A stretch of DNA of 64,000 nt from assembly GCF_045037415.1 (NCBI RefSeq), contig NZ_CP173440.1; one strand, 5' to 3'. Positions 1 to 45,180 of this stretch are shown here, in pieces. Positions within the stretch are counted from its first letter, which is position 1. Each line of letters starts with the position of its first letter. The notes under the pieces are model-generated. The model worked only from the letters and a program-made list of their open reading frames with translations. It was not told the DNA's origin and searched no databases. This stretch comes from Escherichia coli. GTDB lineage: Bacteria; Pseudomonadota; Gammaproteobacteria; Enterobacterales; Enterobacteriaceae. The position numbers and the translations under genes were made by a program.

Positions 1-839
1 CGGAGGGTGTGCGGTGTGGCGGGCTTCGTGATGCCTGCTTGTTCTACGGCACGTTTGAAGGCGCGCTGAAAGGTCTGGTCATACATGTGATGGCGACGCA
101 CGACACCGCTCCGTGGATCGGTCGAATGCGTGTGCTGCGCAAAAACCCAGAACCACGGCCAGGAATGCCCGGCGCGCGGATACTTCCGCTCAAGGGCGTC
201 GGGAAGCGCAACGCCGCTGCGGCCCTCGGCCTGGTCCTTCAGCCACCATGCCCGTGCACGCGACAGCTGCTCGCGCAGGCTGGGTGCCAAGCTCTCGGGT
301 AACATCAAGGCCCGATCCTTGGAGCCCTTGCCCTCCCGCACGATGATCGTGCCGTGATCGAAATCCAGATCCTTGACCCGCAGTTGCAAACCCTCACTGA
401 TCCGCATGCCCGTTCCATACAGAAGCTGGGCGAACAAACGATGCTCGCCTTCCAGAAAACCGAGGATGCGAACCACTTCATCCGGGGTCAGCACCACCGG
501 CAAGCGCCGCGACGGCCGAGGTCTTCCGATCTCCTGAAGCCAGGGCAGATCCGTGCACAGCACCTTGCCGTAGAAGAACAGCAAGGCCGCCAATGCCTGA
601 CGATGCGTGGAGACCGAAACCTTGCGCTCGTTCGCCAGCCAGGACAGAAATGCCTCGACTTCGCTGCTGCCCAAGGTTGCCGGGTGACGCACACCGTGGA
701 AACGGATGAAGGCACGAACCCAGTGGACATAAGCCTGTTCGGTTCGTAAGCTGTAATGCAAGTAGCGTATGCGCTCACGCAACTGGTCCAGAACCTTGAC
801 CGAACGCAGCGGTGGTAACGGCGCAGTGGCGGTTTTCAT
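1..839 (-). CDS. intI1: Class 1 integron integrase IntI1, N-terminal ~279 codons only; gene is cut by the left window edge
   Basis: Reverse complement of 769-839 reads [24 protein letters not shown], the IntI1 N-terminus; start codon at 837-839; frame is open to position 1, so the ORF track does not list it. Canonical 5'-CS follows. Confidence 0.9.
724..752 (+). promoter_or_regulatory. Pc cassette promoter, weak variant (PcW): -35 TGGACA 724-729, 17-bp spacer, -10 TAAGCT 747-752
   Basis: Hexamers read directly inside the intI1 coding region, oriented towards the cassette. Confidence 0.7.
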
Positions 840-5861: not shown

Positions 5862-6167
5862 ATGACTGACAAAGACCTCTACGGCGGTTTGATCCGCCTG
5901 CACATCCTTCACCATGCAGCCGAGGAACCTGTCTTTGGGCTGGGGATCATCGAAGAGCTACGCCGACACGGCTACGAGATGAGCGCTGGCACCGTGTACC
6001 CGATGCTGCACGGCCTGGAAAAAAAAGGCTATCTGACCTCACGCCACGAACGCACCGGGCGACGTGAACGGCGTGTTTATGACATCACTGAACAAGGCAG
6101 AACTGCACTTGCTGATGCGAAAACAAAGGTCAAGGAGCTGTTCGGAGAGTTGGTAGAAGGTGGTTGA
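5862..6167 (+). CDS. padR: PadR-family transcriptional regulator (orf98 of the chrA module)
   Basis: 101-aa product with winged-helix PadR signature; directly downstream of chrA. Confidence 0.8.
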   Translation: MTDKDLYGGLIRLHILHHAAEEPVFGLGIIEELRRHGYEMSAGTVYPMLHGLEKKGYLTSRHERTGRRERRVYDITEQGRTALADAKTKVKELFGELVEGG

Positions 6168-6332
6168 GTTTTTGCTTCTATGTCAGGTTGAGCTATACCC
6201 TAACTGGATTGTCATTTTCAGAAGACGACTGCACCAGTTGATTGGGCGTAATGGCTGTTGTGCAGCCAGCTCCTGACAGTTCAATATCAGAAGTGATCTG
6301 CACCAATCTCGACTATGCTCAATACTCGTGTG

Positions 6333-8235: not shown

Positions 8236-9473
8236 CAGTGTTCACCTTCTGTATGGGTTGGGGCGGAGGCTGTGGCTGCCGCCGCCATTGTAGCAAATTG
8301 AAGACGGAGCGAGAGTAGAGCCACGAGCCCCGCAAACACGGCCGATACAACGAGGCCAGGGAGCGGACCAGCAAGGTCGACAAACGCGCCGGCCGCAAGC
8401 ATAACCATGGGCGAGGCTGACAGCATCACCGCCGAGACCGTGCCGAGTACCCGGCCGAGAAGTTCTGGCGGCGTGCGGTTGTAGATGGCAGCGTTGAGAA
8501 TGGGAGAGACTGAGCCGGTCAGCAGTCCCACGAGCGCGCCCAACAACATCAGCACCGGCACGCCTGGCAACTGTGAAAGCAGAAGCGAGCCCACCGCAGA
8601 GCCACAAAATGCCACCGCCAGCCAGTTCTGCGCTGATATCCGGGCGCCGACCGACGCATGAATGGCAATGCCAAGGAGACCACCAGCCCCCATCATTGAG
8701 GAGAACAGCCCGAGCTCTGCTACTTGGCGTCCTGCATCTACAAACAGCGCAGGCATGATGACGCTGCCGTTGGCGCCAACGATGCCCACGAAGATCATCA
8801 CTATACCAAAGAGAGGGCGCAGCAGGGGTTCGCTCCAGAGAAAAGCGACGCCGGCGCGCATGGAGAGAGTCGCCGTCGTGGTCATCGTCCGAGCGGCACG
8901 CGCGGGAAGCACCCACGCGCCGAGCAGACCTGCAAGGACGGAGCAGAACGCCGTCAGCCCGAGCGTTGGCGCAGCGCCAAGCAGGCCGATTGCGGCCCCC
9001 CCAAGGGCCGGGCCACCTAGAATCGCGACGTTCCCGATCACCGCTTTCAGTGACGAGACGCGCTCAACGGAGAGCCCGGCGACGTGGCCGAGTTTGGGCA
9101 GCTCACTGTCCTGCGCGGCCATACCGGGTGCGTCGAACGCGGCACCGAGCACCACGCAAGCGATCAGCCCAGTGTTCGAGAGGGCGCCAACGGCATCGAG
9201 CAGTGGGATGCTCGCCATGGCCACGCCGCCCACCACACCCGAGATCAATGCGACGGGCGCGCGCCCGAACCGATCGACGAGGCCACCACCAACCCACGCG
9301 CCGATGATGGTCGCGATGACGCTGCTAGCGGCCGTGGCGCCCGCCCAGGCCGCGCTCTTTGTATGAGACAGGACGAACCATGGAAGCGCGAGGGCCGCCA
9401 CCGCGTTGCCGATCCGGAAGAGAAAGGTCGCCGCGAACAGCGTCGCGAGCGGGCTATATCGACGTTCGCTCAT
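8235..9473 (-). CDS. mrx: MFS membrane protein Mrx of the mph(A) operon
   Basis: 412-aa hydrophobic product between mph(A) and mphR(A). Confidence 0.9.
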   Translation of the reverse strand: MSERRYSPLATLFAATFLFRIGNAVAALALPWFVLSHTKSAAWAGATAASSVIATIIGAWVGGGLVDRFGRAPVALISGVVGGVAMASIPLLDAVGALSNTGLIACVVLGAAFDAPGMAAQDSELPKLGHVAGLSVERVSSLKAVIGNVAILGGPALGGAAIGLLGAAPTLGLTAFCSVLAGLLGAWVLPARAARTMTTTATLSMRAGVAFLWSEPLLRPLFGIVMIFVGIVGANGSVIMPALFVDAGRQVAELGLFSSMMGAGGLLGIAIHASVGARISAQNWLAVAFCGSAVGSLLLSQLPGVPVLMLLGALVGLLTGSVSPILNAAIYNRTPPELLGRVLGTVSAVMLSASPMVMLAAGAFVDLAGPLPGLVVSAVFAGLVALLSLRLQFATMAAAATASAPTHTEGEH

Positions 9474-20477: not shown

Positions 20478-20613
20478 CTGATGTCTATAAAGGTATACGT
20501 TTTCAGCATGCCTCTCAGATCCCCGAAAAAATGTCTATAAACCTCCCTAAATCAGTGTTTATGGATTATTCTTTAAATCTCTATGATGTTTAAAGACCTT
20601 CCGGAGGTTTTGC

Positions 20614-21186
20614 GTGCAATATGCCTACATCAGGGTAAGCTCGGCCGATCAGAATACGGCCCGTCAGGAAGAGGCATTGTCAAAGGCGGGTTTTCAGCCT
20701 GATAAAATTTGTGTTGAGCATGCCAGCGCGAAGGACACAAACCGCCCGGGGTTACAGGAACTCCTGGGGCAATTACGCCCTGGTGATACGCTTCTGGTTC
20801 ATTCCATCGATCGCCTTTGCCGGAATATGTCGGATATGTGCGCTGTCACCACCCGGCTTCGTGACCAGGGCGTTACCCTTATTTTTCTGAAAGAGCAGCT
20901 GACGTTCAGCGCCGGCACAAACAATCCGATGCAGGAACTGCAGCTGCACATGATGTCGGCATTCAGCCAGTTTGAACGAGCCTTACTGAAGGAAAGGCAG
21001 GCCGACGGCATCGCCGCGAAAAAAGCACGGGGTGAAAAAACAGGGCGCCCCGGCGCCGATATCAAAAAGATCCAGGAAATTGACGCACTCAGAAGCAGAG
21101 GGGTCAGGCTCAGGATCGCCTGCGACCATGCGGGCCTTGGCGTTTCCACATATTATAAGCTTCGTCACCAGATGAACAACCAGTAG
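20614..21186 (+). CDS. Small serine recombinase (resolvase/invertase family) encoded inside the ISKpn19-like element
   Basis: N-terminal YIRVSSADQ serine-recombinase motif and C-terminal HTH. Confidence 0.6.
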   Translation: MQYAYIRVSSADQNTARQEEALSKAGFQPDKICVEHASAKDTNRPGLQELLGQLRPGDTLLVHSIDRLCRNMSDMCAVTTRLRDQGVTLIFLKEQLTFSAGTNNPMQELQLHMMSAFSQFERALLKERQADGIAAKKARGEKTGRPGADIKKIQEIDALRSRGVRLRIACDHAGLGVSTYYKLRHQMNNQ

Positions 21187-24813: not shown

Positions 24814-25469
24814 GCGACGTTTGCAGAAGTCTTGGCGTGTCGCGTGCGCAGTTGAGCATTCGGGTTCACCGGCCATCTGACTGACAGGATCGCAGACGGC
24901 AGCCCCGTTCTGACGATACCACCGTATTGTCCCGGATAAACATGGCGGTGGCTGACCTGCCGACGTATGGTTATCGCCGTGTGTGGGCGCTGCTGCGACG
25001 GGAGTCGGAGCGGGACGGCCTGCCTGTGGTTAATGCAAAGCGGGTGTATCGCATTATGAGAACGCATAATCTGCTTCTTGAACGTAAACCCGCTGATCCT
25101 TGCCGTAAGCGGGCCCATAAGGGGCGCGTAGCAGTAGCGGAAAGTAACCGGCGCTGGTGCTCAGATGGCTTTGAGTTCCGCTGTGATAATGGCGAAAAGC
25201 TGCGGGTGACCTTCGCGCAGGACTGCTGCGACAGGGAGATCATTGACTGGGCAGCGAGCACCGGAGGCTATGACAAAGAAACGGTGCAGGATGTCATGCT
25301 GGGTGCGGTGGAAAAACGCTTCGGAAGGCAGTTGCCAACAGTGCCGGCGTTCGCCCGGTTGCTGGGACTGGAGCCTTGTACGACAGCAGTGCGAAGCCCG
25401 GAAAGCAATGGCATAGCAGAAAGCTTCGTGATGACGATAAAACGGGACTACATCAGCATCAGGATTTTA
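24800..25469 (+). pseudogene. orfB of the IS2-group element, internally deleted and 3'-truncated where the Tn3 IR begins
   Basis: ORF-track product 24927-25478 matches IS2 InsD in blocks ([36 protein letters not shown]) with a gap and a premature end. Confidence 0.55.
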
Positions 25470-25507: not shown

Positions 25508-27709
25508 CAACGTTTTCTGCCTCTGACGCCTCTTTTAATGGTCTCAGATGTCCTTTGGTCACCAGTTCTGCCAGCGTGAAGGAATAATGGCCGAGCATAT
25601 TGATATGTCCGTGGCAAAGCGGGGAGAGGCGTGCGATATCTTCATCATTCAGTGTTTCACCCTGCGCCCGGAGATGATCCAGGGCTGCCTGCATATAAAT
25701 AGTGTTCCATAACACGACGGCGTTAGTGACCAGCCCCAGTGTGCCCAGTTGATCTTCCTGACCGTCGGTATATCGTTTTCTTATCTCACCTTTTTGACCG
25801 TGACAGATGGCTCTGGCAACGGCATGGCGACTTTCTCCCCGATTAAGCTGGGTCAGAATGCGCCGGCGGTAATCTTCATCATCAATATAATTAAGCAGAT
25901 ACAGCGTTTTGTTGATGCGCCCCACTTCAATGATTGCCTGAGTCAGTCCGGAAGGACGTTCACTTTTCAGCAATGAACGGACCAGCACTGAAACCTGTAC
26001 TTTGCCCAGCTTCAGGGAGCCAGCGGTCCGGATCATTTCGTCCCACTGAAGGACTATTTTTCGGGGATCTGATTGCCCTCTGGCAATATCATTCAGCACG
26101 CCATAGTCGGCATCATGGTCCATTCGCCAGAAAACCGAAGCACCGGCATCAGCCAGGCGTGGAGAAAACTGGTATCCCAGCAGCCAGAAAAGGCCAAAGA
26201 CAAGTTCGCTGGCACCTGCTGTATCGGTCATAATTTCGGTTGGATTCAGCCCGGTTCCTGTTCCAGAAGACCTTCCAGCACAAAGATAGAGTCCCTCAGC
26301 GTCCCCGGTATAACGATGCCATGAAAGCCGGAATACTGATCGGACACAAAGTTGTACCAGGTGATCCCTCTGTTATTACCAAAGTATTTGCGGTTCGGTC
26401 CGGCATTGATTGTTCTGACTGGCGTAACAAAGCGCATTCCATCTGCAGATGCCACTTCTCCTCCACCCCATATCTGTGCCAGTGGCAGCGTTGCCTGAAA
26501 ATCAACCAGTCTGGCATTAGCGCTGGTGATAGTTTCAGCCCGCAGATAGTTCGCTTTTGTCCAGTTCAGCCGGTGTCGGGTCAGTGCAGGAACATTTGAT
26601 CTGATCAGTGGTTCCAGACCGATATTGCAGGCTTCAGCCATCAGCACGGCGCTGATGCTGACGGGCAGATCATCAACTCTGGCACTGGCTTCACTAGCAT
26701 GGAAAAACTCATCAGCAAATCCGGTATGGGCGTTAATTTCGAGCAGCAACTCCGTTAAATCCACCGGAGGGAGTAGATCACTGATCATTTTGCTCAGTCG
26801 TTTCAGACTGTCCGGCTCATCAAGACTGGCGAGGGGAGAAATTGTCAACCGGGGCTTCGGGCCAGAAACATCGAGTTCGACAGCCTCATTTTCGCAAAGA
26901 CGTGCAGCAACCTGTCTGTAACGACTATCAAGCTGATGACCCAGAGATTTTATTGCTTCCTGCGGGTCTGTCGGGTGCCCCAAAGAACGATAAACCTTAA
27001 TCCGGTTTGCCTGCCAGTCAGCACCCTGTAGTAATCTTGCACGAGGATCTCCCCACCGGTTACTGCCGGTAACGTAGACATCCCTCCGCCTCAGACTATC
27101 CTGCAGTTTACTGAGAAAGCAGAGCGTGTATCCCCTGCGGGTGATATGTTTTTCCTTGTTAATCACCAGCCGTTTCCATGACCGACTGATAATTTCCGTT
27201 GGTGCGTCGTCAAAAAACTGCCGCCGTGAGCTGAACTCCCGGCTGAGGTAGTCACAGGCATTCAGAGTGGTAACCCCGGCAGGTGCGGATGAAAATTTAA
27301 CGGTATTCAGCAGATGGGGCAGGAAACGACGAACGCGCCCGTACTGCTCCACCATTTCTTCATGAAAATTATCGTCTGAGGGCCGGGCAATTTCACGGAC
27401 AAGCGTGATGATTTCAGCCAGCTTTTGCCTTGGGATGTAGCTGAACACCTCAGCACGAATCGATTCGTCCGGTGTTTCTTCTTTCAGCAGGTACGAACAT
27501 GCGCTGGCGAGCGCCAATGCAGATTTATCCAGATCCTTCAGCGAGCGGAGCCGTTTTTTCTGCCCAATCTTTCTGGCGTCACGGATGATAACGGCCAGCA
27601 TGGCGTCCAGAACGTCCAATGCATCATCCAGCGCCAGCGTTTCCCATGCAAGGACAAAGGCAACCAGAACCGCCATCCTTTTCTGCGGTGACATCCTGGC
27701 AATATTGAA
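25503..27709 (-). pseudogene. tnpA: Tn3/Tn2-type transposase tnpA, 5'-truncated by IS26 (first ~280 codons missing) with a frameshift near 26231-26246
   Basis: ORF-track products 26246-27694 and 25503-26231 are colinear with TnpA but in different frames; the reading frame runs up to the IS26 boundary. Confidence 0.85.
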
Positions 27710-39559: not shown

Positions 39560-41200
39560 GAACGCAGCATTTTGATTGGTATCGTTGGCCTTCAGGCTCG
39601 TCAGTCAAACAGACCCAGGAGCAGCTCAGCCGGTGGCGCCCGGCTTTCGGGTAACGCCCTGGTCCCGCTGGTTTCGGCTTTGTGCTTCAGGTGATCAAGG
39701 ATCTGCTTGATCACTATAGGGTCTTCAATGCAGGCGATGACTTTCATGGCGCCGCCGCAGCCGCTGCAGGTCTCGATGTCGATATTGAAAACACGCTTGA
39801 GCCGTTGCGCCCATGTCATCGACGCTCGCCGTTGTGCTGGTGTTGCCGGTTCATCAGCCACCCTGACCTTGTTGCCCCTGCCCCGTTTTGCCGGCGTGAC
39901 CAACGCCCGGTGCCGACTGTTGGGTGCGAACACCCCGTGGAAGCGGGTTAGGTTGACTCTGGGCTTCGGTACCAGGGCGGCCAGCCTTGCAATGAAATCC
40001 AATGGTTCGAAAATGACGTGCGTGGTGCCGTCCCGGTACGGCGTCTTGAGCTGGTAGCGCACGTTGCCGCCTCGTGTTAACGACAGCCGCTTCTCGGATA
40101 CCGCCGGGCGGCTGATGTACCGGCACAGCCGTTCGAGCTTCTTGCGTTCATCGGCCCTGGCCGCCACGCCGGCGTGCAGGCTGGACCCGGCTACCTTGCC
40201 AATCCCGTCACCGAACGGATCACCACTGGTCGGCAGAGTTTGCAAAGTGAACACCTTTCGCCCCGCCTGTGAACCGACAGCGATACGGTAAGTGATCGAG
40301 TGCCCCAGCAGGGGTGTCATCGGGTCGTCATCCACCGCATCCGAGGCCAGATAGCTGTTTTCGACATCCCGTTCCAGCAGGCCTTGCCGTTCCAGATAGC
40401 GACCCACCCGGTGGGCGATGGTGTGCGTCAGCTGGGTGAGCTCTGGGCTGGTCGGCGCCTTGACCCAGCGGAAACGCGCTGAGCCGTGGGATTGCTCGAC
40501 ATACACACCGTCGAGAAACAGCATGTGGAAGTGAACATTCAGATTGAGCGCCGATCCAAAACGCTGGATCAGGGTGACCGCGCCCGTCTTGGCCACTTGG
40601 TGGGTATGGCCCGCTTTCTTGACCAGGTGCGTGGCAATGACGCGGTAAACGATGCCCAGCACCCACCCCATGATCTCGGGCCGGCTGGCAAACAGGAAAC
40701 GCAGCTGAAACGGGAAGCTCAACACCCACTGACGCATGGGTTGTTCAGGCAGTACTTCATCAACCAGCAAGGCGGCACTTTCGGCCATCCGCCGCGCCCC
40801 ACAGCTCGGGCAGAAACCGCGACGCTTACAGCTGAAAGCGACCAGGTGCTCGGCGTGGCAAGACTCGCAGCGAACCCGTAGAAAGCCATGCTCCAGCCGC
40901 CCGCATTGGAGAAATTCTTCAAATTCCCGTTGCACATAGCCCGGCAATTCCTTTCCCTGCTCTGCCATAAGCGCAGCGAATGCCGGGTAATACTCGTCAA
41001 CGATCTGATAGAGAAGGGTTTGCTCGGGTCGGTGGCTCTGGTAACGACCAGTATCCCGATCCCGGCTGGCCGTCCTGGCCGCCACATGAGGCATGTTCCG
41101 CGTCCTTGCAATACTGTGTTTACATACAGTCTATCGCTTAGCGGAAAGTTCTTTTACCCTCAGCCGAAATGCCTGCCGTTGCTAGACATTGCCAGCCAGT
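39560..41200 (-). mobile_element. ISCR2 (IS91-like rolling-circle element); oriIS side towards the glmM fragment; ends approximate
   Basis: Contains the 497-aa Rcr2 transposase; canonical sul2-glmM fragment-ISCR2 arrangement. Confidence 0.7.
39601..41094 (-). CDS. rcr2: ISCR2 rolling-circle transposase (Rcr2)
   Basis: 497-aa product MPHVAARTASRDRDTGRYQSHRPEQTLLYQIVDEYYPAFAALMAEQGKELPGYVQREF... Confidence 0.9.
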   Translation of the reverse strand: MPHVAARTASRDRDTGRYQSHRPEQTLLYQIVDEYYPAFAALMAEQGKELPGYVQREFEEFLQCGRLEHGFLRVRCESCHAEHLVAFSCKRRGFCPSCGARRMAESAALLVDEVLPEQPMRQWVLSFPFQLRFLFASRPEIMGWVLGIVYRVIATHLVKKAGHTHQVAKTGAVTLIQRFGSALNLNVHFHMLFLDGVYVEQSHGSARFRWVKAPTSPELTQLTHTIAHRVGRYLERQGLLERDVENSYLASDAVDDDPMTPLLGHSITYRIAVGSQAGRKVFTLQTLPTSGDPFGDGIGKVAGSSLHAGVAARADERKKLERLCRYISRPAVSEKRLSLTRGGNVRYQLKTPYRDGTTHVIFEPLDFIARLAALVPKPRVNLTRFHGVFAPNSRHRALVTPAKRGRGNKVRVADEPATPAQRRASMTWAQRLKRVFNIDIETCSGCGGAMKVIACIEDPIVIKQILDHLKHKAETSGTRALPESRAPPAELLLGLFD

Positions 41201-41304: not shown

Positions 41305-41529
41305 TCATGAGGTTGAACACGGCTTGCGCCGGCAGCGTTCACGCTCCTGGTCGGCGATCTCGCCCGGCTGCAATGCTAGCTCAGCATCGGTCATGCGCTC
41401 CAGCACGTCGCGTAGGCGGATGGTGCAAGGAATGGGCGGCAGCTCGAACTCATAGCCGCCGGCGATCATTTCGGCCGCAATCTCCTCGGTGATGAAAAAC
41501 GGCTCGTCGTCTTGGTTCGGCTTCTTCAT
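41305..41529 (-). CDS. Small hypothetical protein between resG and ISCR2
   Basis: 74-aa ORF whose start overlaps the resG stop by 4 bp (41526-41529). Confidence 0.4.
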   Translation of the reverse strand: MKKPNQDDEPFFITEEIAAEMIAGGYEFELPPIPCTIRLRDVLERMTDAELALQPGEIADQERERCRRKPCSTS

Positions 41530-42263
41530 GCCCTTTCCTCCTGGCGCTCATCCTGGCCGACAGCGGCCAGGGCATCGGCTTCCGTCAATGCGTCCTCCAC
41601 GAACGCGCCGTGCTGCTTCGCTTCGGCCTGGCTGACCTCGGCCCATATCCGTTTCACCTGGGCCGCACTGTACCCGGCCAGCTCGGCGGTCTTGTTGATG
41701 CTGTAGCCGGACTTGCGCAGCGCGACAACTTGGGCGCGGCGCTTCGGATCAGCACGGCGGCCCTTGTACCGCCCGGCCTGGCGGGCCAACTCAATGCCTT
41801 GGCGCTGGCGTTCGCGCCTGTCCTCGTAGTCGTCGCGGGCCATCTGCAAGGCCAGGCGAAAAAGCATGATCTGCACGGCTTCCAGCACGATCTTGGCGAC
41901 GCCCTGGGCCTCGGCCGCCAGGTCGGATAGATCGACCACGCCAGGGACGGCCAGGCTTGCGCCTTTGGCCTGTATCGAGGCCACCAGGCGCTCGGCCTCG
42001 GGCAAAGGTAGGCGGCTGATGCGGTCGATCTTCTCGGCAATGACCACCTCGCCGGGCTGTAGGTCGCCGATCATGCGCAGCAGCTCAGGCCGGTCGGCGC
42101 GTGCGCCGGATGCCTTCTCACGGTAGATGCCGGCGACGTAGTAGCCGGCGGCCTTCGCGGCCGTAGTGATCGCCTCTTGGCGTTCCAAGTCCTGCGCGTC
42201 GGTGCTGACGCGCAGATAGACCCGCGCCACCATCGGCGCGGCTACTGGCTTCGTCCTGCGCAT
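41526..42263 (-). CDS. resG: Serine recombinase/resolvase (ResG-like, as found next to ISCR2 in GIsul2-derived regions)
   Basis: 245-aa product with N-terminal YLRVSTDAQDLERQ serine-recombinase motif. Confidence 0.75.
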   Translation of the reverse strand: MRRTKPVAAPMVARVYLRVSTDAQDLERQEAITTAAKAAGYYVAGIYREKASGARADRPELLRMIGDLQPGEVVIAEKIDRISRLPLPEAERLVASIQAKGASLAVPGVVDLSDLAAEAQGVAKIVLEAVQIMLFRLALQMARDDYEDRRERQRQGIELARQAGRYKGRRADPKRRAQVVALRKSGYSINKTAELAGYSAAQVKRIWAEVSQAEAKQHGAFVEDALTEADALAAVGQDERQEERA

Positions 42264-42387
42264 ACTTGCGGGCTCCTTTGGGCATACGCAAAGTGTCCGG
42301 TCATGCTACCCCCGGCCAAAAAGGCCGTCATGCGATTTATCTTGGCCGGGTCGTTATTGGCGGGTCTAAATGGCCGCTCCGTGGATC

Positions 42388-42600
42388 TCATCGCCAGAAA
42401 TGGCGATGCGAGATCCAGGGCAGGGCGGCCGCCATCGTCAGACCTGGCGATGGTCGACGCCGGCGCGCATCGTCGGATGTGGCGATGCGAGCTCGAGGTC
42501 GGTGGCCACCGCCGGCGACCTGGTGCCATCGTCGGCAATGGCGATGCTGCAGCTCGACGTGCGCGGCCTGGTCGTCTCGGCATCGTCGGATGCGGCGATG
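42388..42600. repeat. Array of five 20-bp palindromic sites, consensus CATCGYC-N6-GRCGATG, 125-340 bp upstream of resG
   Basis: Sites read at 42388-42407, 42433-42452, 42468-42487, 42527-42546 and 42581-42600. Confidence 0.75.
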
Positions 42601-42842
42601 CTCGAGCGAGGCGAAAAAAAACCGCCTCGGGGTGTCCGAGGCGGCAAGTCTGCATGCGGTTCAGGGAGGAAGAAACCGCGCCGGCGATCAGGGAGGAAAA
42701 CCGCGCGGCCTGATGTGCAGCTCGGCCACTTTAGCCGGATTTTTCGACTTATCCGATGCGAGCGGCCCGCCGTGGGCGCTGCTCGATCTGCTGTTGCTTT
42801 TTCTCGACGTGCTTCTGCTCCTGGTGCTGCTGCTCGTCGCGC

Positions 42843-43662
42843 GGCACTGTTGCAAAGTTAGCGATGAGGCAGCCTTTTGTCTTATTCAAAGGCCTTACAT
42901 TTCAAAAACTCTGCTTACCAGGCGCATTTCGCCCAGGGGATCACCATAATAAAATGCTGAGGCCTGGCCTTTGCGTAGTGCACGCATCACCTCAATACCT
43001 TTGATGGTGGCGTAAGCCGTCTTCATGGATTTAAATCCCAGCGTGGCGCCGATTATCCGTTTCAGTTTGCCATGATCGCATTCAATCACGTTGTTCCGGT
43101 ACTTAATCTGTCGGTGTTCAACGTCAGACGGGCACCGGCCTTCGCGTTTGAGCAGAGCAAGCGCGCGACCATAGGCGGGCGCTTTATCCGTGTTGATGAA
43201 TCGCGGGATCTGCCACTTCTTCACGTTGTTGAGGATTTTACCCAGAAACCGGTATGCAGCTTTGCTGTTACGACGGGAGGAGAGATAAAAATCGACAGTG
43301 CGGCCCCGGCTGTCGACGGCCCGGTACAGATACGCCCAGCGGCCATTGACCTTCACGTAGGTTTCATCCATGTGCCACGGGCAAAGATCGGAAGGGTTAC
43401 GCCAGTACCAGCGCAGCCGTTTTTCCATTTCAGGCGCATAACGCTGAACCCAGCGGTAAATCGTGGAGTGATCGACATTCACTCCGCGTTCAGCCAGCAT
43501 CTCCTGCAGCTCACGGTAACTGATGCCGTATTTGCAGTACCAGCGTACGGCCCACAGAATGATGTCACGCTGAAAATGCCGGCCTTTGAATGGGTTCATG
43601 TGCAGCTCCATCAGCAAAAGGGGATGATAAGTTTATCACCACCGACTATTTGCAACAGTGCC
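42843..43662 (-). mobile_element. IS26 copy 5
   Basis: 820 bp with IRs. Confidence 0.95.
42895..43617 (-). CDS. tnp26: IS26 transposase Tnp26
   Basis: Identical to the copy 1 product. Confidence 0.95.
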
Positions 43663-45180
43663 CTTTCGACTACCTCCCCTCAAAGCCATATCACGTACGT
43701 TAATCCTGACTTCATTAAAATCAGTGGTTTCACTGAGGAAGAACTATTAGGCCAGCCTCACAACATCGTAAGACACCCAGATATGCCGCCTGCTGCATTT
43801 GAGCATATGTGGAGTACATTAAAATCTGGCCGCTCATGGATGGGGCTAGTAAAAAATCGCTGTAAAAATGGCGACCACTATTGGGTAAGTGCTTATGTAA
43901 CGCCAATAGCTAAGAATGGTTCGATTGTTGAATACCAGTCTGTAAGGACCAAGCCTGAACCTGAGCAGGTTTTGGCTGCGGAAAAATTATATGCTCAATT
44001 GAGAAGCGGGAAGGCCGCGAGGCCGAAATTGGCTGCTAGCTTTTCCGTGAAAATACTCTTGCTCATATGGGGTAGTATTATATCAAGCGCAATGGCTGCC
44101 GGCATGCTTACTGATACATCAATAAGCAGCTTATTGTTAGCCACTTTAATGTCAGGAAGCTTAAGCTCTGTTAGTGTTTTGGCTATTCTCTCTCCTCTTG
44201 GAAGACTGGTTGAAAGAGCCAGGAATATTTCCAATAACCCATTAAGTCAATCCCTCTACACTGGGCGCACCGATGAGTTTGGCCAAATAGAGTTTGCTTT
44301 ACGAATGATGCAAGCTGAAACAGGCGCCATAGTAGGTCGCATAGGTGATGCATCAAATCGGCTTAGCGAACACACCCGAGGCCTACTAAAGGATATTGAG
44401 TCAAGCAATGTACTTACAGTTGAGCAGCAGGCAGAGACAGATCAAATAGCAACGGCAGTAAACCAAATGGTGGCAAGCATTCAAGAGGTTGCGAGCAATG
44501 CACAGCATGCTGCAGATGCGGCCGGAAGAGCAGACACTGAGACGGCATCTGGCCAGCGTCTGGTAGCCCACACAAGCCAGTCAATCACTGCCCTTGAAGG
44601 TGAAATTAGGCAAGCCACTCAGGTTATTCATGAGCTTGAAGGTCAAAGTAACGAGATATCAAAAGTTCTTGACGTTATACGAGGGATCGCCGAGCAAACG
44701 AATTTGTTGGCACTCAACGCAGCAATTGAGGCCGCGCGTGCTGGTGAGCAGGGGCGTGGTTTTGCTGTTGTCGCCGATGAGGTTCGCAGTCTTGCTGCTC
44801 GCACACAGCAATCGACAACGGATATTCAAAGCATGATCAGCGCTCTACAAGAGCGAGCGCAATCCGCTGTTACAGTCATGGAGCAAAGTAGTCGGCAAGC
44901 GCACACGAGTGTAGCTCACGCAGAGGAAGCAGCTACAGCTCTTGATGGAATTGGCCAACGCGTTAACGAAATTACCGACATGAACGCGCAAATAGCGACT
45001 GCGGTCGAGCAGCAGGGAGCAGTAAGTGAAGACATAAACCGCAGTATTATCAATATACGCGATGCTGCTGATACCAATGTACAGACCGGGCAGAATAATT
45101 TGCAAAGTGCGAAATCTGTCGCTCAGTTAACTAGCGCTCTGAGCGAACTGGCAAAACAGTTTTGGGAAAAACGAGGATAA
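43663..45180 (+). pseudogene. Methyl-accepting chemotaxis protein with PAS domain (Aer-like), 5'-truncated by IS26
   Basis: After the IS26 end the frame reads a PAS-like segment ([41 protein letters not shown]), two TM helices, then an MCP signalling domain ([35 protein letters not shown]). Confidence 0.75.

Follow-up and report, generated by a model that had tools for sequence, protein, structure and literature searches.

Plasmids of the IncP-1β group carry conserved inverted repeats of the form 5′-CAGCATCG-3′ that occur in clusters; they have no assigned function, and Upf31 has been suggested as the protein that binds them (Elg et al. 2025, PMC11997246). As cited there, the clustered inverted repeats were first reported for R751 (Thorsted 1998). 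In a reporter assay, full-length Upf31 represses a 68-bp fragment carrying the upf31 promoter about 50-fold (4.76 to 0.09 XylE units), and its C-terminal domain is KorA-like and predicted to contact KorB, which KorA and TrbA contact through their own C-terminal domains (PMC11997246). Neither SMRT sequencing nor restriction tests gave any sign of Upf31-dependent methylation, no methylase activity was detected, and in published RNA-seq data upf31 was the only plasmid gene with lower expression when Upf31 was present (PMC11997246).

The repeats share several features with the operators of the IncP-1 regulators (KorA OA, KorB OB, TrbA and KorC), which are likewise short palindromes dispersed on the backbone and served by dimeric repressors. 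Those operators differ from the repeats in sequence and stand singly at promoters, whereas the repeats form clusters of three to five sites at operon ends and a response is known for the upf31 promoter alone. A second parallel comes from restriction-modification systems, in which DNA methyltransferases and controller proteins autoregulate (e.g., those of the M.SsoII type). Common to both is a protein with a methyltransferase fold that represses its own promoter via a palindrome overlapping the −35/−10 elements, but Upf31 has no detected methyltransferase activity and its presumed sites have also been amplified into arrays far from the gene.

In the 64-kb stretch of Escherichia coli DNA analysed here (the window), five sites matching CATCGYC-N6-GRCGATG lie 126–337 bp upstream of the start of resG, a serine recombinase gene (Table 1). 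A sequence-only reading of the window had described these sites, and a pattern scan of the whole 64 kb confirmed them: all five exact matches fall at 42389–42600, none occurs elsewhere, and 100 dinucleotide-preserving shuffles produced no exact match. Allowing up to two mismatches, nine matches were observed in the 64-kb window against 0.84 expected. Every site spans 20 bp in an invariant 7-6-7 layout, with 13 bp between the arm centres. Measured from start to start, successive sites are 44, 35, 59 and 54 bp apart; the first of these distances had been given as 45 bp and the other three correctly. The 20-bp dyad layout described earlier was borne out, but four of the five sites are asymmetric, reading CATCGCC-N6-GACGATG towards resG (minus strand) with a single polarity, and so they are co-oriented pseudo-palindromes rather than perfect dyads. 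Nor are the sites evenly diverged, as the CATCG/CGATG arms are invariant and variation is confined to the spacer and to arm position 6/15. The sequence logo of 92 distinct sites, pooled, reads gCATCG-Y-C-RnTTCY-G-R-CGATGc, in which the polar spacer RnTTCY is informative even though the spacer played no part in site finding.

Table 1. Features of the window, of IncP-1β plasmid pBP136 and of loci carrying Upf31 homologues of subfamily 2
Feature	Replicon or locus	Coordinates	Strand	Remarks
ISCR2 transposase	window	39601-41094	-	
74-aa ORF	window	41305-41529	-	
resG	window	41526-42263	-	serine resolvase, 245 aa
Mosaic junction at resG start	window	42232-42276		right side ~99.7% (99.65%) identical to IncP-1β-1, left side 77%; blastn against pAKD33 and pBP136
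IncP-1β-1-derived fragment	window	42277-42847		parA upstream region, array, traC terminator and traC 3′ end; 99.65% identity over 571 bp to pAKD33
resG promoter (inferred)	window	42303-42331	-	−35 ATGACG (42326-42331), 17-nt spacer, −10 TAGCAT (42303-42308)
Dyad CCGGCCAA-N22-TTGGCCGG	window	42312-42349		between array and resG, just upstream of the inferred resG promoter
Array	window	42389-42600		
Site 1, nearest resG	window	42389-42408	-	towards resG: CATCGCCATTTCTGGCGATG; exact match
Site 2	window	42433-42452	-	towards resG: CATCGCCAGGTCTGACGATG; exact match
Site 3	window	42468-42487	-	towards resG: CATCGCCACATCCGACGATG; exact match
Site 4	window	42527-42546	-	towards resG: CATCGCCATTGCCGACGATG; exact match
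Site 5, nearest traC	window	42581-42600	-	towards resG: CATCGCCGCATCCGACGATG; exact match
traC intrinsic terminator	window	42611-42645	-	10-bp G+C-rich stem, then T run; terminator scan
Last 97 nt of IncP-1β traC	window	42749-42845	-	includes stop codon (stop at 42749); remainder removed by IS26
IS26	window	42846-43665		truncates traC and bounds the fragment; terminal repeats with transposase ORF between
Cluster, 4 sites	pBP136	18-168		between traM and kfrC
Cluster, 4 sites	pBP136	6080-6216		3′ end of klcB (korC/klcB)
Cluster, 5 sites	pBP136	9271-9468		between oriV and trfA 3′ end
Cluster, 3 sites	pBP136	25191-25300		upstream of upf31
Cluster, 4 sites	pBP136	26990-27144		between parA and traC
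CATAGAC-type sites (mostly paired)	L076	2409-2462		
CATAGAC-type sites (mostly paired)	L077	2406-2461		
CATAGAC-type sites (mostly paired)	L074	4826-4887		
CATAGAC-type sites (mostly paired)	L072	7703-7722		

The array had been placed just inside the IS26 boundary, which is only roughly correct: 245 bp separate its edge from the IS26 end at 42846, an interval that holds both the 3′-terminal part of traC and its terminator. One terminal repeat of IS26, GGCACTGTTGCAAA, is at 42846, and the other, its complement, ends at 43665. Between the traC stop codon and the terminator, in the traC 3′ UTR, there are two near-identical direct copies of CAGGGAGGAA(GA)AACCGCGC (42662–42706). The ORFs that overlap the array are spurious, as had been proposed, since homologous arrays differ by whole units of 35–59 bp (three, four or five copies) and a reading frame across them is not conserved.

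Alignment places the origin of this DNA in the IncP-1β backbone: it is a fragment of IncP-1β-1 type that is joined to a diverged resolvase gene of the parA family where resG starts, and that IS26 cuts inside traC. From 42337 on, the sequence is 99.8% identical to a Pandoraea pnomenusa IncP-1β plasmid (NZ_CP015373), and the match continues there into full-length traC; the traC 3′ remnant is contiguous with full-length traC in both the Pandoraea plasmid and pAKD33. Because 42277–42847 is nearly identical to pAKD33 and is contiguous with a complete traC in IncP-1β plasmids, the array and its flanks can be assigned to the IncP-1β backbone. On the other side of the junction, the resG ORF (41641–42231) shows 77% nucleotide identity to IncP-1β parA, and ResG shows 76.5% amino-acid identity to the ParA of pBP136, of which it lacks the N-terminal extension of about 80 aa. 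A second, distantly related serine recombinase gene (28–38% identity to ParA/ResG) is found at 20608–21183 of the window.

The array and its flanks are collinear with pBP136 and with loci L055, L059 and L060, sharing the motif, its polarity and a position past the traC terminator, which is itself conserved in all four. In all the IncP-1β variants aligned, the traC-parA cluster ends with a conserved counterpart of site 1; its conserved first site, immediately past the terminator, is site 5. Depending on the variant, this cluster has three, four or five sites, of which the first and last are conserved, and the variants differ by exact unit deletions that leave hybrid sites; the unit of site 3, for example, is missing from the four-site array of pBP136 and the three-site array of L060. 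With five exact sites carrying the CATCG/CGATG arms in a cluster, at the defined backbone position between traC and parA, the array is, by sequence and position, the traC-parA cluster of the IncP-1β clustered inverted repeats that have already been described. The DNA itself, the motif, the polarity and the position past the traC terminator are common to the two. The window copy differs in being detached from the backbone, with no upf31, korB or other repeat clusters, and in being joined to a parA allele of 77% identity and cut by IS26.

This configuration is widespread. The 582-bp interval from resG to IS26 was found at an identity of at least 99% in 1,764 plasmid records (the truncated form is in about 1,800), while the array together with more of traC occurs in only 57, and the best matches listed among these are IncP-1β plasmids. 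The sequence-only reading had made its case depend on the array recurring in other copies of the resG-ISCR2 region, and it is present in nearly all of them. A comparison with intact GIsul2 had also been proposed; none of the resG copies retrieved has an intact GIsul2 to the left of the array, and each of them stops either at the IS26 boundary seen here or short of it. One chromosomal copy (L004, 7053–7877) has IS26 abutting the equivalent of 42387, so that the array is gone and resG is intact.

No upf31 homologue is present in the 64 kb (best tblastn E-values 0.03–0.7), and neither is korB, IncC or any other IncP-1 backbone gene apart from resG. The protein most likely to recognise the sites is not encoded in cis, and because upf31 and korB are both absent from the window the array is an orphan relic, kept because it is situated between resG and the IS26 boundary. 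The requirement in the earlier reading that a nearby gene encode a binder of the sites is in effect not borne out, as no likely binder is encoded near the array.

The accessory-free IncP-1β plasmid pBP136 carries 20 motif sites (up to two mismatches) in five clusters, all of them just past operon 3′ ends (traC, traM/kfrC, klcB, trfA and upf30.5) and at module borders. When 100,044 species genomes were scanned for pairs of adjacent sites, 46 loci were obtained. Many of these are IncP-1β backbone, and the neighbours of others are traK-like/oriT genes, antitoxin genes resembling higA, or toxin-antitoxin modules accompanied by ResG-like genes. Arrays of two to five CATCG sites lie by traK-like (oriT-side) or higA-like genes at L026, L027, L029, L050, L057 and L068, and at L025, L031, L048, L051, L062 and L067; their hosts are Pseudomonas, Xanthomonas, Cupriavidus, Comamonas and other Proteobacteria, and several of the contigs are long enough to be chromosomal. 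No upf31 was found within a few kb of any of these arrays. All-against-all clustering of the ORFs around the 46 loci named no shared neighbour, a comparison that is noisy in G+C-rich DNA. Loci L028, L033, L036, L038, L043 and L069, and L044, were rejected as unrelated look-alikes from coding sequence, namely repeats of the IAGSGD type with a fixed spacing of 54 or 57 bp, and an acidic tandem repeat.

Each 20-bp site, with its two 7-bp arms and polar 6-bp spacer, would most likely be bound by a dimer of the Upf31 family. Upf31 is predicted to join a divergent Dam-like fold to a KorA-like C-terminal dimerisation domain, and on IncP-1β plasmids a single site in the −35/−10 spacer of the upf31 promoter would mediate autorepression. 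The 68 bp preceding the upf31 ATG of pAKD33 read TTGACA-g-CATCGCCATTTCTGACGATGCT, so the fragment that Upf31 represses holds one site, which by our own mapping fills the spacer between −35 and −10; a site occupies the same place in the upf31 promoter of pBP136. More distant homologues keep it as well. Upstream of the Upf31 homologue of a Citrobacter plasmid (53% identity), TTGACAtCATCGTCAGAAATGACGATG is found 28 nt before the ATG, and TTGACAtCATCGTCATTTCTGACGATG is found, also 28 nt before the ATG, at the homologue of Pseudomonas aeruginosa pPUV-8 (47%). These two keep TTGACAtCATCGTC(AGAAAT/ATTTCT)GACGATG in unrelated flanks, and in each the promoter site is the sole such site in the locus of about 6 kb.

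An alignment of Upf31 proteins separates two subfamilies. Near the genes of subfamily 2 (four of four homologues, 43–47% identity; Photobacterium, Shewanella, Acinetobacter and Sphingobium) there are sites of the type CATAGAC-N6-GTCTATG, which have the same 7-6-7 layout with both arms changed; about 0.002 matches with no more than one mismatch are estimated to be expected by chance in a 5.6-kb locus. In Photobacterium and Shewanella these sites precede the homologue's own gene, in Sphingobium they precede the gene before it, and in Acinetobacter they follow the operon. A fixed operator position and a symmetric co-variation of both arms with the protein subfamily are as predicted for a cognate pair of dimeric repressor and operator. 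The conserved operator in homologues of 47–53% identity and the co-variation in subfamily 2 are new, and support Upf31 as the candidate binder of the repeats.

The homologues of Citrobacter (L073, 2973–3669) and P. aeruginosa (L075, 2473–3178) each head a gene cluster with a QueC-like 7-cyano-7-deazaguanine synthase and a PfkB kinase. The Citrobacter cluster also has a gene annotated as 8-oxoguanine glycosylase, with an anti-phage dGTPase gene adjacent, and these clusters look like DNA-modification or defence loci.

Some observations count against Upf31. For the homologue at L063 (70% identity), the 260 nt that precede the gene show nothing that is clearly a site. An array of four sites and a ResG-like gene occur on the complete plasmid pLH3.4, which lacks upf31, and several array loci that are chromosomal have no upf31 within a few kb. 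Together, pLH3.4 and the window indicate that arrays can persist with no Upf31 encoded in cis. The pLH3.4 record (L070, 38.7 kb) consists of two near-identical units of about 19.4 kb arranged head-to-tail, either a dimer or an assembly artefact.

The promoter of resG was placed from the hexamers found at the equivalent position upstream of ResG homologues, namely TTCATA-16-TAGCAT (L042), TTGATA-16-TACGAT (L070) and TTGCAT-16-TACAAT (L016); a sigma-70 consensus scan of 42150–42860 called no promoter. So placed, the promoter would lie downstream of the array with no overlap. As the array does not overlap this putative promoter, and as upf31 alone was lower in the RNA-seq data, the clusters do not appear to be ordinary repressing operators. 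Their position at operon ends fits a role as a loading platform, roadblock or boundary; the multi-site clusters at the 3′ ends of backbone operons would presumably load several Upf31 dimers, possibly touching KorB. Taken together, we consider it probable, with good confidence, that the array is the IncP-1β traC-parA repeat cluster, made up of sites for an Upf31-family dimer, and that it is an orphan relic here and not an operator of the resG promoter. The sequence-only reading was right about the general class when it suggested an operator array, in that both the sequence and the architecture of the sites match those of the operator-like site in the promoters of upf31 and its distant homologues, but the binders that it proposed find no support. 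The product of the 74-aa ORF matches no Pfam or NCBIfam family and has no recognisable DNA-binding family, and genes of the ResG family elsewhere have no array directly upstream. An ORF homologous to the 74-aa ORF (70% identity) was found on a Xanthomonadaceae contig that carries a CATCG array (L031, 10980–11201), where no ResG-like gene was detected adjoining it.

The repeats of R751 were reportedly first suggested, by Thorsted in 1998, to be hot spots for recombination and acquisition. Such sites for taking up foreign DNA and shuffling modules would agree with the clusters in both classical IncP-1 accessory regions (oriV-trfA and parA-traC) and at module borders, with the related arrays that other elements carry at the borders of oriT/traK-like, higA-like and toxin-antitoxin modules, with the unit deletions and hybrid sites, which are products of recombination between repeats, and with the IS26 that abuts the array edge in L004. 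Against this, to our knowledge the IncP-1α plasmids use the same two insertion regions and have no repeats, and the Tn402-type insertion points lie outside the array. Acquisition of DNA also leaves unexplained why a site holds the operator position in upf31 promoters and co-varies with the Upf31 subfamilies. As the main function of the repeats this is unlikely, although recombination and Upf31 binding are compatible.

A resolution site had also been proposed for the array, which would then be the res (multimer resolution) site of ResG/ParA, where palindrome-bound dimers would synapse two copies and carry out the crossover; we think this very unlikely. Like the res sites of serine resolvases (Tn3/γδ; RP4 ParA), the array is a set of dyads that precedes a resolvase gene, and the region is one that Tn402/Tn5053 target. 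The region upstream of IncP-1β parA is described in the literature as a Tn402 hot spot and presumed resolution site, and the mosaic junction is nearby. The subsites of classical Tn3/γδ-type res, however, are 25–34 bp long and differently spaced. Subsites of differing length, with half-sites at the ends, are not seen in the array, whose sites are uniformly 20 bp, and its copy number varies (three, four or five). A res site would be present once per replicon and travel with its resolvase, whereas pBP136 has four clusters besides the one at parA, some of them inverted around parA-upf31, and crossing over between them would delete or invert essential DNA. Moreover, ResG homologues elsewhere (69–92% identity) share the putative promoter and the ATTTAGA and GTATGCCCAAAGGA elements with the window, yet no CATCG array immediately precedes them, as in L042 (87%), pLH3.4 (86–92%), Xanthomonas translucens (69%) and plasmid pYK0422-04 (72%); this holds at L042, L070, L015 and L016.

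The insertion points of mobile elements direct attention to a different dyad, 52 bp from the array (Table 1). Two different 25-bp ends, which we take to be of the Tn402/Tn5053 type from their terminal repeats, abut the same base independently (between the equivalents of 42336 and 42337), one in Pandoraea (L013, 7981–8005) and one in Achromobacter (L060, ~3100). The arms of this dyad are conserved between the window and pBP136, while its spacer has diverged. Since Tn402 and Tn5053 are ‘res hunters’ that target res regions, this dyad is a better res candidate than the array, and it may be part of the true ParA/ResG res and a likely hot spot for such elements.

The palindromes might instead act as RNA hairpins or DNA cruciforms, terminating transcription or stabilising mRNA in the manner of REP elements, a possibility in keeping with the position of all five pBP136 clusters just past an operon 3′ end and with the 7-bp stem that each site could form. 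That stem would often be imperfect: 23 of the 45 distinct exact sites have one GCC and one GTC arm, which on one of the strands would put a C·A mismatch at position 6 of the stem. Across these 45 sites there is no compensatory change between the arms, since the arms do not vary and half of the sites lack symmetry, and the spacer shows no self-complementarity. It is thus the sequence that seems to be conserved rather than the pairing, as would be expected for a protein site. The sequence information carried by the spacer, the separate canonical terminator that already precedes the array, and the site inside the promoters of upf31 homologues also speak against a hairpin role, which is highly improbable.

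Equally improbable is a role for the array in partition, as a centromere-like site, or as a sequence methylated by the Dam-like Upf31. A centromere had been suggested from the repeated dyads, but the window contains no partition genes, neither a linked ATPase nor a centromere-binding protein. IncP-1 partition uses KorB at OB sites, and KorB OB operators are not consistently adjacent to the clusters, the window having only a degenerate half-site. Replication iterons would be direct repeats beside an origin or rep gene, to which the initiator binds. One pBP136 cluster does lie between oriV and trfA; the TrfA iterons are a different 17-bp sequence, and the window has no rep gene next to the array. 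A DPPY motif and weak similarity to D12-class methyltransferases would favour methylation by Upf31, and its predicted contact with KorB, the ParB of IncP-1 partition, would favour a centromere, but no methylation dependent on Upf31 was seen by SMRT sequencing or in restriction tests (PMC11997246).

For the window itself, Upf31-family sites that have lost their backbone would be an IncP-1β fossil, silent on the activity of resG, sul2 or IS26. More widely, the comparisons trace the widespread region upstream of resG to IncP-1β, and give concrete sites for footprinting and ChIP of Upf31. A more speculative extension, which we hold to be improbable, is that the orphan array on about 1,800 resG-ISCR2-sul2 plasmids acts in trans as a decoy, titrating Upf31 (and KorB through the KorA-like tail), and that arrays at operon ends in general are boundaries that stop sliding KorB clamps or read-through. 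If the decoy were real, the regulation, cost and persistence of an IncP-1β plasmid entering such a cell would be altered.
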